From Escherichia coli (lineage in GTDB: Bacteria; Pseudomonadota; Gammaproteobacteria; Enterobacterales; Enterobacteriaceae), in NCBI RefSeq assembly GCF_016903815.1, contig NZ_CP069973.1: a stretch of DNA of 64,000 nucleotides. The stretch is one strand, 5' to 3'. The notes below the pieces were generated by a model. That model had not been told where the DNA came from. It did no database searches and saw nothing but the letters and a program-made list of their open reading frames with translations. Of this stretch, positions 21,698 to 26,048 are shown piece after piece; position 1 is the stretch's first letter, and each line of letters starts with the position of its first letter. The translations under genes were made by a program, and so were the position numbers.

Positions 21698-22533
21698 CCT
21701 TCATTCAATCATAACTACTGTAATTCATACGATACTCAGATAAGTTATTTTACTACGTTGTTGCTAATATCTACCTGTTATCAGTCTTCACTGAAACAGC
21801 AATTGATTTTAGTCATTATCCATAATGAACTGTATTGACTTAACGATGATTGTTGTTGACCTGAAGTGTTTTAACTATTCTGGTAAATATCAATACTTCT
21901 GTCATCACTGATTAACTGGATGTTTACTCTTTGATAAGGTATCCATGATTTCGTCATGTTTAACAGCGCAGGATAAACAATGAAATTAACAGAGTGAATT
22001 CCTGATTATATTTGTTCGTTTCTGATTATCTTGTATGTTAAACAAAATGAAAATTATCCATCCATGGTATATTTTATTCTGGTGCCGTGTACCCGTTAAC
22101 GCTCATGTTTTGAAGTGAGTTGTTTTTAACAGATTAAATGAGAGTGTATGATTTTATCAGGTTACAGATATGTGTTGGCCTTGTACACGTTTTTGCAGAC
22201 TCACTGAGAGCAAGTTTGTAGTTTATGATGTGATTGGTCGCAATATGTTTCTTAATCTCCAGGTAGTGGGGTTTTAGCTCGTATTTTACAGTATTTCGTG
22301 ATGTTTTATTGAGTCTGTATTTTCTTTACTCCTCGTTTATCTCATCTCTTTAGCTAATACCATCAGATAATCCATTTCTTTCTGCATAATGCTGCGTATC
22401 GTTAATAACCCGTCGTATCCATTCTGCTACAGCATGCCTGATAAATACCATCTGTAAGTTATTACCGTTATGAGCGAAAGCATTAATTCGTTCACAGAGC
22501 TTAAAACATCATTAACTTTCAGGAGTCATCAAC

Positions 22534-23100
22534 ATGCCTAAATCTTACACACCAAACTGGTTTTTTACCGCTTTACTTGACAATCACATCAATCAAATGA
22601 TGGCACGCTATTCCTGCCTGCGGGCCTTACGGATGGATTTCTTCTACAGGAAAGATACGCCCGATTTCTTACAACCTGATCATCGCTGGCTTGAATTGCA
22701 GTTGCGTATGCTGCTGGAGCAGGTGGAACAATTTGAAAATATCGTTGGTTTCTTCTGGGTGATTGAATGGACGGCTGATCATGGTTTTCATGCGCATGCG
22801 GTTTTGTGGATCGATCGTCAGAGGGTTAAAAAAATATATCCCTTTGCGGAGCGGATTACGGAATGCTGGCGGTCTATTACACATAACAGCGGTTCGGCAC
22901 ACCGCTGTACATATCAGCCGCATTATACATACAACATCAACATTCCTGTGCGCCACAACGATCCTGAAAGCATCGATAATATTCGCGGTGCCCTGCATTA
23001 TCTGGCAAAAGAAGAGCAAAAAGACGGGCTGTGTGCCTATGGCTGCAATGAAGTTCCTGAACGTCCTGCTGCAGGGCGTCCTCGTAACCCTCACTTCTGA
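22534..23100 (+). CDS. YagK/YfjJ-family protein (Inovirus Gp2-like)
   Basis: 188-aa ORF with family resemblance; from memory. Confidence 0.5.
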   Translation: MPKSYTPNWFFTALLDNHINQMMARYSCLRALRMDFFYRKDTPDFLQPDHRWLELQLRMLLEQVEQFENIVGFFWVIEWTADHGFHAHAVLWIDRQRVKKIYPFAERITECWRSITHNSGSAHRCTYQPHYTYNINIPVRHNDPESIDNIRGALHYLAKEEQKDGLCAYGCNEVPERPAAGRPRNPHF

Positions 23101-23327
23101 AGCTTAAATCCTGAGCTTCCTGTCCTGGAAACATTCCGTCGGTAAAACCTTACCACCTTGCTTAATGATGTGAACTGAAGTCAACGGAGATCATTCACTC
23201 TTAACCACATCCGGTGTTCTGTCCCTTGTCGGTGACCTGATCTTCCCGTTCTGCTTCGGTTCTTCACTTATTCCATCAACCCCATCCGCAAGCTATAACA
23301 CGTCAGCTCATTCACGGGCAGGACGCA

Positions 23328-23933
23328 TTGTGGGCTGCGCATAACGGAGCATATCTTATGAATGCTATCCCTTATTTCGACTATAGCCTAGCACCCTTCT
23401 GGCCGTCTTATCAGAACAAAATCATCGGTGTCCTTGAGCGTGCGCTGCGTGAGCAGTCCGGCTCCCGGATACGACGGATCCTGCTTCGTCTGCCATGTGA
23501 ATATGACCGTACCTTCAGCAGCAGAAAGATCTGGTTCGGTATGGACTTTATCGAAACCGTCAGTGCGCTGATGAATGCAACACCTGGACGAGATCTCTGC
23601 TGGCTCCTGACCCGTCATCCTGAAAAGCCGGAATACCACGTGGTGCTGTGTGTCAGACAGGAGTATTTCGACGGCCCTGAACTGGACCGGCTGATTCTGG
23701 ATGCCTGGAGCAACGTACTGGGCTTCGCGTCACCGGGTGAAGCAAAGCAGTATCAGAAGCAGATCACCCGGGATGTGGTGCTGGACAGTCGTTCACCGGA
23801 CTGTGAAAACATCCTCAAAGAGTTGATATGGGCGTTCAGTGATTTCGCCCGCGATCGTCGTGGTGTGTGCGATCCGGAAGCCCGTTGCCTCGCCGGTAAT
23901 CCCGGCTATCCCGGATCTGCAGGACCGTTCTGA
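23328..23933 (+). CDS. Hypothetical protein, possibly a second YagK/YfjJ-like paralog; start may be the Met at 23358
   Basis: ORF adjacent to the YagK-like gene and AlpA. Confidence 0.45.
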   Translation: MWAAHNGAYLMNAIPYFDYSLAPFWPSYQNKIIGVLERALREQSGSRIRRILLRLPCEYDRTFSSRKIWFGMDFIETVSALMNATPGRDLCWLLTRHPEKPEYHVVLCVRQEYFDGPELDRLILDAWSNVLGFASPGEAKQYQKQITRDVVLDSRSPDCENILKELIWAFSDFARDRRGVCDPEARCLAGNPGYPGSAGPF

Positions 23934-24001
23934 AAGCTCGGTTCAGCATCTTTCCCTGCATTCGCACAAACTTCATAAATCTCACAAAGGACATTCTGAC
24001 C

Positions 24002-24235
24002 ATGTTGACCACAACAAGCCACGACAGCGTGTTACTGCGTGCCGACGATCCCCTGATCGACATGAACTACATCACCAGTTTCACCGGTATGACCGATAAA
24101 TGGTTTTACAAGCTGATCAGTGAAGGTCATTTCCCTAAACCCATCAAACTGGGGCGCAGCAGCCGCTGGTACAAAAGTGAAGTGGAGCAGTGGATGCAGC
24201 AGCGAATTGAGGAATCACGAGGAGCAGCAGCATGA
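24002..24235 (+). CDS. alpA: AlpA-family phage regulatory protein (MerR-like HTH)
   Basis: MNYITSFTGMTDKWFYKLISEGHFPKPIKLGRSSRWYKSEVEQW matches the AlpA pattern. Confidence 0.75.
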   Translation: MLTTTSHDSVLLRADDPLIDMNYITSFTGMTDKWFYKLISEGHFPKPIKLGRSSRWYKSEVEQWMQQRIEESRGAAA

Positions 24236-24357
24236 AACGTGTTGCAATGCCGGCGCTGGTATTGCGGAAATCAGCCCTGTCCCCGATGCTGGCGACACTC
24301 CCGCTCATCTTTCTGCTGACTCCTCTGGTCTGCCAACTGTTTGTCATCATTTCCTGA
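24232..24357 (+). CDS. Putative 41-aa hydrophobic peptide translationally coupled to alpA (ATGA overlap)
   Basis: ATG at 24232 overlaps the alpA stop; AGGAG-like motif upstream; below the ORF-track size cutoff. Confidence 0.3.
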   Translation: MKRVAMPALVLRKSALSPMLATLPLIFLLTPLVCQLFVIIS

Positions 24358-24526
24358 CTGATTCGTCATTCCCTTCGTCCCGCCAGTCACTGGTGTTTGT
24401 ATCGTACCGTCCGGTGTTGATGTGCGTTTTCCGTGTGTCTGCACCGGCTTAACAAAATTCAACAGGGTTTGAAAAGGAACATTTCGTGCAAATAACCGAA
24501 GCCTTAATTTCAGAGCCGGGAGACAT

Positions 24527-24891
24527 CCGGCGTTTTGTTCAGCAGGCGCTGGAGTTCTTTAATCTGCTTCATGGCAGCAGCAAGTTCAGAGGCAGGAACG
24601 ACCTGTTCTCCTGCGGCCACAGCAGTAAGACTTCCCTCCTGGTATTGCTTGCGCCAGAGAAATAACTGGCTGGCTGCCACACCGTGTTGCCGGGCAACAA
24701 GGGAGACCGTCATTCCCGGTTCAAAGCTCTGCTGAACAATAGCGATCTTTTCCTGTGTAGTACGCCGTCTGCGTTTCTCCGGTCCTAAGACATCAATCAT
24801 CTGTTCTCCAATGACTAGTCTAAAAACTAGTATTAAGACTATCACTTATTTAAGTGATATTGGTTGTCTGGAGATTCTGGGGGCTAGTCTA
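24527..24891 (-). mobile_element. IS2 fragment (left end with truncated insC)
   Basis: Near-identical to the IS2 left end seen intact at 53024; InsC translation diverges after LQRLL; terminal GGGGGCTAGTCTA. Confidence 0.85.
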
Positions 24892-24939
24892 GTTTTAAAA
24901 CGCCCCCTGCCGTATCAGAACTGGGGAATGCTACAGGGT

Positions 24940-26048
24940 TTGACCTGTTCCTCGAGGATCGTAGCGGAGCTGGCCATGAAAAAATGATCCAGGCCCGAAA
25001 TCAGCTTCTTGCTGAAGCGGCGAAAAGTCCAGCGTTAAACATGGTTCGTCCTAACGGCATGAACGATGAGCCTCAGTTCCAGATTCTGATTGATGACGAG
25101 AAAGTTCAGGCGCTTAAACTGAGCATGAGCGACGTCGACAACATAATGTCAGCAGCCTGGGGTTCGATGTATGTAAATGATTTTAACGATCGTGGACGGG
25201 TGAAAAAAGTCTATATTTAGGGCGAACCCGGCTCACGTATATCACCGCAGGATTTTGATAAATGGTATGTCCGTAACAGTGATGGCGACATGGTTTCCTT
25301 TGCCTCTTTTGCAACAGGCAAATGGATTTATGGCTCACCAAAACTGGAGCAATATAATGGTATCTCTGCTGTCGAAATCCTGGGGGAACCGGCACCAGGA
25401 TACAGTTCCGGGGATGCAATGAAAGCAATTGAGGATATTGCGGCAAGACTTCCCGAAGGTTTCCATATTTCCTGGACAGGTTTGTCTTTTGAGGAACGAC
25501 TTTCAGGTTCTCAGGCTCCTGCACTATATGCACTTTCACTGTTGATCGTCTTTCTGTGTCTGGCTGCACTGTATGAAAGCTGGAGCATTCCTTTCTCGGT
25601 CATGCTGGTTGTTCCGCTTGGTGTCCTGAGGGCTGTCTGTGCTACTTTGTTGCGCGGCCTTGGTAACGATGTCTTTTTCCAGGTCGGTTTATTAACAACA
25701 ATAGGGCTGTCTGCGAAAAATGCCATACTTATCGTGGAGTTTGCTCGTGAATTGCATGAGAAAGAAGGACTAAGCATTAAAGAGGCTGCTGTTGAAGCGG
25801 CGAGAGTGAGGTTAAGACCGATAATTATGACTTCGCTGGCATTTGTAATGGGGGTTATCCCACTGGCTGTCTCGACTGGAGCAAGTTCCGGAAGTAAACA
25901 TGCCATCGGTACTGGTGTGGTTGGAGGGATGATCACTGCTACGATACTGGCAATCTTTTATATTCCTCTCTTCTATATGTTAATTGCCGGGTTCTTCAGC
26001 CGCAGAAATAAGAAATCATCGGATAAGACTGAAGCTGAGCAATCATAA
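24940..26048 (+). pseudogene. RND efflux transporter (AcrB/MdtF family), 3' portion only, with in-frame TAG at 25218..25220
   Basis: Translation aligns to the C-terminal third of AcrB-like pumps in one frame across the stop; 5' end removed at the IS2 fragment. Confidence 0.8.

Follow-up and report, generated by a model that had tools for sequence, protein, structure and literature searches.

A Hydrophobic ORF Coupled to alpA in Escherichia coli Is Most Probably a Frameshift Allele of a Conserved Mini Zinc-Ribbon Gene

Introduction

Phages and their satellites encode small zinc-finger regulators, among them the transcription activators Ogr of P2 and Delta of P4 and the translational activator Com of Mu. 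An uncharacterized zinc-ribbon family of enterobacterial islands is described in Pfam as PF11682 (Zn_ribbon_11, "probable zinc-ribbon"), whose larger proteins, about 137–140 aa long and carrying DUF7828, lie beside alpA in the same islands as the locus analyzed here and end in ACWYCRQCRHAYYGERYCTHC. A literature search on PF11682, DUF3279, and Zn_ribbon_11, on the peptides described below, on AlpA in combination with a zinc ribbon, and on UCP030791 and DUF7828 returned nothing relevant. A further point of comparison is the class of type I toxins represented by Hok, Ldr, Ibs, and TisB, which are short and hydrophobic and belong to a type of gene that is often missed.

We analyzed a stretch of 64,000 nucleotides from E. 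coli, hereafter the window, in which a short ORF follows directly on a gene of the AlpA family. A reading made from the sequence alone had proposed that this ORF is an unannotated gene for a single-pass membrane peptide, translationally coupled to alpA and possibly a toxin or a regulator; in its short length and hydrophobicity it resembles the type I toxins. Comparison with homologous loci leads us to conclude that the ORF is, with high probability, a frameshift allele, created by a 26-bp deletion, of a conserved alpA-coupled Cys4 mini zinc-ribbon gene that resides in CP4-like islands across Enterobacterales.

Results

The ORF behind alpA and its setting

The ORF begins at the very end of alpA, its ATG (24232–24234) overlapping the TGA of alpA (24233–24235) to give ATGA at 24232–24235, and is preceded by an AGGAG motif (Table 1). 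All three elements of the sequence-only reading, the ORF, the overlap, and the upstream motif, are present in the sequence. The description of the ORF as unannotated did not hold, as PGAP/RefSeq already lists an identical ORF as the hypothetical protein WP_001342704.1 (E. coli M217, 100% identity over 551 nt). The 41-aa peptide has a GRAVY of 1.43 and a maximum of 2.35 in a 19-residue Kyte–Doolittle window, reached at the C terminus. The length of the ORF is no evidence by itself because dinucleotide-preserving shuffling of the 300 nt that follow produced an ORF of at least 41 codons after the fixed ATG in 34% of cases. In fact, the three forward frames are nearly stop-free around 24120–24452, the third frame holding an ORF of 110 aa, and ORF calls in this region are therefore unreliable.

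Table 1. Positions of the features of the alpA locus in the window
Feature	Position	Strand	Details
AlpA-family HTH gene, 77 aa	24002–24235	+	PF05930 Phage_AlpA, E = 2e-10, 40.8 bits against a cut-off of 21
ORF of 110 aa, third forward frame	24120–24452	+	Spans the 3′ end of alpA and the whole spacer
Shine–Dalgarno-like AGGAG	24220–24224	+	7 nt 5′ of the ATG at 24232; read from the sequence
41-codon ORF	24232–24357	+	Translation MKRVAMPALVLRKSALSPMLATLPLIFLLTPLVCQLFVIIS
Junction of the 26-bp deletion	24245–24253	+	Sole remaining ATGCCGG repeat at 24247–24253
Remnant of the ancestral zinc-ribbon frame	24248–24319	+	CRRWYCGNQPCPRCWRHSRSSFC*; frame +1 relative to the 41-codon ORF
Next module gene, 84-nt 5′ stub	24486–24569	+	PGAP pseudogene, L001 6537–6620
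IS3-family transposase orfA fragment	24510–24845	−	PF01527 HTH_Tnp_1, E = 1.3e-19; PGAP partial transposase

A Pfam scan matched the 41-aa peptide to no family. Rfam, searched over positions 22000–26000 on both strands at E ≤ 1, gave no match and hence no known small RNA, leader, or antitoxin or regulatory RNA, and a scan of positions 23800–24600 found no promoter-like site. The same 23800–24600 interval contains three weak terminator-like hairpins, of which one (24381–24395) lies 3′ of the ORF, inside an 11-bp segment missing from four of the seven other aligned copies.

The alpA module is part of an island segment with, in order, a YagK/YfjJ (inovirus Gp2-like) gene, a hypothetical gene, alpA, the spacer, and a gene for a 182-aa UCP030791/Gp2-like protein, followed by a ProQ/FinO gene on the opposite strand. 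Of 5,426 complete E. coli genomes, 2,697 carry the module, frequently as several diverged copies (76–100% identity). The AlpA-family protein of the window is identical to WP_000958492.1. In the window, the gene after the spacer is reduced to a stub: its intact homologues, encoding the 182-aa family, are 549 nt long, and the IS3-family fragment cuts the gene at 24569. The window's island copy is a decayed remnant, and the interrupted neighbor and decaying module fit a loss of the small gene without consequence. Beyond the insertion sequence fragment, an RND efflux permease pseudogene and a TetR gene are found at about 24.9–26.8 kb.

Some islands have a different arrangement around alpA. Two or three of the larger PF11682/DUF7828 proteins flank the gene at L011 229–1018 and L057 457–1333, lying 5′ of alpA in the former and 3′ in the latter, and they replace the 201-aa hypothetical protein of the window (23328/23358–23933). 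These variants suggest that the zinc-ribbon proteins around AlpA form a modular family.

A conserved cysteine-rich frame starts at the same ATG

Translated from the ATGA, the eight aligned E. coli copies all begin with MKRV(A/V)M and then continue in two different frames. From the same start codon, L002, L004, L005, L007, and L008 read MKRVVMPVRWQCAKCRRWYCGNQPCPWCWR... and the window, L003, and L006 read hydrophobic peptides; among the intact E. coli copies, the MKRVVMPVRWQCAKCRRWYCGNQPCPWCWR-type reading is seen in L002, L004, L005, and L008–L014. The sequence-only reading had stated that its proposal would fall if homologous alpA regions did not share the reading frame, and on this count the membrane peptide fails, since after codon 5–6 most homologues read a different frame from that of the window. 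The start site and its coupling to alpA fared better and appear both genuine and conserved, with ATGA in all eight aligned E. coli copies, in every E. coli copy examined except one, and equivalents elsewhere.

We scanned the AlpA protein against a collection of one genome per species and obtained 44 loci. A Cys-rich mini-protein homologous to the second frame of E. coli follows alpA in at least 10 other enterobacterial genera, the hosts including Citrobacter, an unclassified Enterobacteriaceae isolate, Superficieibacter, Siccibacter, Yokenella, Kosakonia, Tenebrionibacter, Rosenbergiella, Hafnia, and Serratia microhaemolytica (for example, MKKWNNVKSGSIPPRWICERCRRQYCGEKPCPFCWRVISRM and MEKRRRTQPWKIPPRWTCARCQRRYCGAGPCPVCFRPSGTPAQP). 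The intact product is basic, about 30–50 aa long, and carries the motif (I/M)PxRWxCxxCxRxYCGxxPCPxC. An alignment of 21 sequences has three invariant residues, the Trp and two ligand Cys, and conservation of a Pro and of the remaining two ligand Cys is at least 90%; the ligands are spaced C-x2-C-x9-C-P-x-C, and a fifth, central Cys is variable.

The Cys frame carries a clear coding signature. Computed from 19 distinct sequences across 23 core codons, its pN/pS is 0.36, and the two alternative frames give 1.22 and 1.17. Third codon positions have a summed entropy of 24.0, in comparison with 11.8 and 11.4 for the first and second, and Cys is encoded now by TGT, now by TGC. This bears on the reading that no protein is coded at all and that the spacer between alpA and the next gene is regulatory DNA or RNA with incidental small ORFs, either because the imperfect 24–26-bp direct repeats serve as operator sites or because the spacer is a leader for the downstream Gp2-like gene. 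The imperfect tandem repeat of the intact copies (ATGCCGGTACGCTGGCAATG / ATGCCGG-CGCTGGTATTG), several non-triplet indels, and the high conservation of the 3′ part before the next gene would suit such a spacer. However, the coding signature extends across genera, the starts preceded by a Shine–Dalgarno motif are conserved, there is little or no variation in the four ligand Cys, the Trp, or the Pro, members match PF11682, and the non-triplet indels either come after the zinc-ribbon core or are what defines the broken alleles. We therefore regard a purely regulatory spacer as highly improbable.

The link between the start codon and alpA takes several forms: the overlap is ATGA in E. coli, TGATG in Citrobacter, and TAATG in Serratia, and Superficieibacter, Yokenella, Hafnia, and Siccibacter have the ATG behind AGGAG or GAGG, at most about 20 nt past the alpA stop. 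One Tenebrionibacter copy (L037) starts 114 nt downstream of the alpA stop. The E. coli copies have a purine-rich motif of the A/GGGAG type where the window has AGGAG, and AGGAG, GGAGGA, or GAGG stands before the start in other genera. We take the AGGAG of the window to be the site at which ribosomes bound for the ancestral mini zinc-ribbon gene.

Not all copies in the Cys frame are complete. In the E. coli sequences L007 (1800–1868) and P0072, Tyr stands in place of the second ligand Cys (TGC to TAC) and the rest of the copy is intact; this appears to be another route of inactivation, and the small gene seems to have been lost in several ways. A start codon is missing from the zinc-ribbon frame of Rosenbergiella metrosideri (L024 1711–1850) and of Kosakonia arachidis (L021). 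In the former, it lies in frame with alpA right behind the TGA and the expected ATGGAAA start is off by 1 nt. Such start-less frames could be frameshift pseudogenes, sequencing errors, or cases of read-through. Separately, two records labeled as distant taxa, the Bacteroidota genome Chryseobacterium sp. 18061 (L026) and a metagenome-assembled Collinsella sp. of the Actinomycetota (L014), contain enterobacterial modules of alpA and the zinc ribbon. The junction and peptide of the first are nearly identical to those of Citrobacter L018 and the second is E. coli-like, and both are probably products of contamination or mis-binning.

Family, fold, and annotation of the intact protein

Judged by its motif and profile matches, the intact mini-protein appears to be a short stand-alone form of PF11682, a Cys4 zinc ribbon. 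The PF11682 HMM matched 11 of the 21 members at E ≤ 0.01 (best 1.2e-11), L037 scoring 30.9 bits against a cut-off of 24 bits and L016 falling below it at 20.5 bits. The 30–37-aa forms of E. coli gave no match to the HMM, though the motif is present in all members. The window's own ORF also gave no match to PF11682, the two knuckles not being in one open frame with a start. Like the family, the intact homologues share W-x-C-x2-C followed by C-x2-C, and the larger PF11682 proteins terminate in a similar pair of knuckles. Unlike the larger PF11682 proteins, the mini-protein is a lone module, coupled to alpA directly downstream of it and with CPxC as its second knuckle; the window copy differs from the family further in having lost the first knuckle and the frame.

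Scans of the intact peptides against NCBIfam and PHROGs gave nothing significant. A profile search of 1.84 billion representative sequences found only 27 clusters, several of which are frameshift or fusion variants from E. coli, and the Cys profile retrieved named relatives across Enterobacterales, some of them with PF11682. A few members, from Serratia fonticola and Klebsiella michiganensis, carry the NCBI name "putative zinc ribbon protein". An AlphaFold2 model of the intact mini-protein shows a beta-hairpin followed by a helix at a moderate pLDDT of 74.5, a predicted fold compatible with a zinc knuckle or ribbon. Foldseek comparison of this model with the PDB gave nothing at E < 1, with only generic zinc-ribbon ribosomal proteins at E > 1, and when the profile of the intact mini-protein was searched against PDB sequences, no match reached an E-value below 0.06.

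PGAP tends to call the broken ORF and to pass over the intact gene. In a spread sample, PGAP placed a hypothetical protein under the match in 19 of 20 broken copies versus 1 of 15 intact ones; intact zinc-ribbon ORFs (30–51 aa) left without a PGAP call are found, for example, at L002 4282–4374, L005 1778–1891, L008 1756–1908, and L009 2785–2940.

A 26-bp deletion separates the two allele types

Relative to the other aligned E. coli copies, exactly 26 bp are missing from the window, L003, and L006 (alignment columns 70–95), with further indels of 4, 1, and 11 bp downstream of the gap. Since the outgroups are intact, the 26 bp represent a deletion in the window's lineage and not an insertion elsewhere. 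The intact copies read ...GTTGT[AG]ATGCC[AG]GTACGCTGGCAATGTGC[AG]AAATGCCGGCGCTGG... at the junction, and the 5′ part of the intact E. coli gene contains an imperfect direct repeat, ATGCCGG-TA-CGCTGGCAATG ... ATGCCGG-CGCTGGTATTG. The deletion corresponds to exactly one interval from ATGCC[AG]G to ATGCC[AG]G. Deletion between short direct repeats is the pattern expected from slippage.

The missing segment encodes PVRWQCAK, including the first ligand Cys, and as 26 is not a multiple of three the frame is shifted. What follows the junction in the window is a remnant of the ancestral frame that keeps the second half of the motif, PCPxC, and has no start codon of its own in proper context; of the ancestral product the frame retains only CRRWYCGNQPCPRC. 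The first five codons of the 41-codon ORF (MKRVA) are the true N terminus of the ancestral gene and the remainder is out of frame.

The deletion allele is common. Using a 103-nt junction probe and requiring the best copy to be gap-free and at least 90% identical, we found it in 948 of 5,426 genomes (17%), or 37% of the carriers. An evenly spread sample of 60 records contained 20 with the deletion and 15 of full length with the extra 26 (or 23) bp. The allele occurs on three backgrounds, each nearest to a different intact copy: the window allele is closest to L002 (identity 0.93–0.94), that of L003 to L005 (0.97–0.98), and that of L006 to L007 (0.92–0.94). Either the deletion arose more than once, or paralogous islands passed it on by recombination or gene conversion; a GTTGC variant beside the junction, present in lineages A and B, argues for some shared history.

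Short direct repeats can provoke errors in assembly and polishing, and a gap between them could in principle be an artefact hiding an intact locus. However, 509 complete genomes, sequenced in independent projects, match the 551-nt region at 99% identity or more, and the same deletion is found on diverged backgrounds with later substitutions. An artefact has practically no chance of being the explanation, and we rejected this candidate because hundreds of complete genomes carry the deletion allele independently of one another.

A coding signature is missing from the hydrophobic frame

The 41-aa ORF might be a functional small membrane protein, a toxin or regulator co-expressed with AlpA, that was perhaps born by frameshift and kept by selection. 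The Shine–Dalgarno motif and the ATGA coupling are intact, the C terminus is strongly hydrophobic, the frame is open for 41–52 codons in all three deletion lineages, and PGAP annotates the product. The frequency of the allele (948 of 5,426 genomes), its three backgrounds, and the frame that is open in all of them could hint at selection, as opposed to a mutational hot spot and drift. These points are outweighed by the behavior of the sequence itself. The frame is not common to most homologues and bears no mark of purifying selection in its own right. Among the deletion alleles, its pN/pS is 0.67 in comparison with 0.30 for the ancestral frame, which the substitutions thus still fit better, the sample here being small (three sequences, about 96 nt). 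The hydrophobic ORFs of the three lineages are 41, 52, and 41 aa long with unrelated C-terminal halves: PLVCQLFVIIS is limited to lineage A, and lineages B and C end in SGQPADCSSFLTDSSFHSHCL and SSQPAGYSYS, which are polar and differ because of a further 1-nt indel. The start has been lost in L061 (ATG to ATA), another copy has a weakened Shine–Dalgarno motif, and the variants of the peptide include many nonconservative changes, among them L to Q, V to G, R to W, and R to P. A homology search gave 24 matches, all from E. coli or from metagenome and read assemblies, with no other species named; the chance length of the frame, reached in 34% of shuffles, and the empty Rfam search point the same way. 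Nothing in these comparisons indicates a selected function for the peptide, and we consider a functional membrane protein very unlikely.

Of the proposed membrane peptide, the hydrophobicity stands, and the transmembrane half fails to be conserved among the deletion lineages. The suggestion of a toxin or regulator found no support, as the searches gave no toxin-type features and neither an Rfam match nor a Pfam family. Unlike the type I toxins, the frame is unconserved, comes with no antisense or leader RNA family and no dedicated promoter or structure, and has a sequence that most probably arose by frameshift of another gene. As the ancestral initiation signals are intact, the 41-aa peptide may plausibly still be synthesized as a by-product whenever the alpA mRNA is translated.

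A variant of the functional reading holds that the recurrent deletion is more than decay, namely an adaptive, repeat-promoted switch that turns the AlpA-associated zinc-ribbon regulator off and at the same time, from the same coupled start, yields a hydrophobic membrane peptide that is new, expressed, and kept. If true, it could for example lock the island in the chromosome and would amount to gene birth by frameshift in three lineages; we rate such a switch as highly doubtful.

Discussion

The deletion, its polarity, and the coding signature of the Cys frame are observed directly, as is the absence of such a signature in the hydrophobic frame, and together they place the ORF as a broken allele of the mini zinc-ribbon gene. 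The history of the locus may be pictured as follows. The intact gene would be translated by coupling to alpA through its overlapping or close start and its own Shine–Dalgarno motif. Slippage during replication between the two ATGCC[AG]G repeats 26 bp apart would be the simplest cause of the deletion, which took out the first CxxC knuckle and shifted the frame. Ribosomes entering from the intact coupled ATG would then read the Cys, Arg, and Trp codons out of frame as a sequence rich in Ala, Leu, Val, and Pro, and would end at a chance stop at 24355–24357.

The locus is a caution for the annotation of small proteins: it combines perfect coupling signals, a hydrophobic profile, and hundreds of RefSeq annotations, and yet the ORF is most probably a by-product of a frameshift. 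The positive result is an uncharacterized Cys4 zinc-ribbon gene, coupled to regulators of the AlpA family in very common CP4-like islands and mostly unannotated where it is intact.

From its ligand pattern, the intact mini-protein is predicted to bind zinc. It may act with AlpA, by analogy probably as an accessory that binds nucleic acid or RNA polymerase, in the control of island genes or in excision. Such a partnership is suggested by the obligate adjacency of the two genes, their coupled translation, the high basic charge of the product, and natural in-frame fusions. Several independent fusions of AlpA with the zinc ribbon are found, in E. coli with three different deletion junctions (P0062, P0068, and P0073, that of P0068 on 16 contigs) and in a metagenomic enterobacterial sequence (P0034 / L057 30–320, from a JGI metagenome), and they are possible Rosetta-stone evidence of joint action. 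The intact mini-protein is thus a testable candidate for an AlpA partner in island regulation or excision, and the E. coli population supplies natural knock-outs, in the form of the 26-bp deletion and the Cys-to-Tyr change, together with natural alleles fused to AlpA.

Among small regulators, the closest known systems are Ogr, Delta, and Com, which offer a plausible analogy for the action of the mini-protein through contact with nucleic acid or RNA polymerase. The mini-protein differs from them in that the Foldseek and PDB profile searches gave no sequence or fold match, its C-x2-C-x9-C-x2-C spacing is another one, and it is about half their size. Like them, it is a tiny, basic Cys4 protein that is encoded by a mobile element beside regulatory genes.
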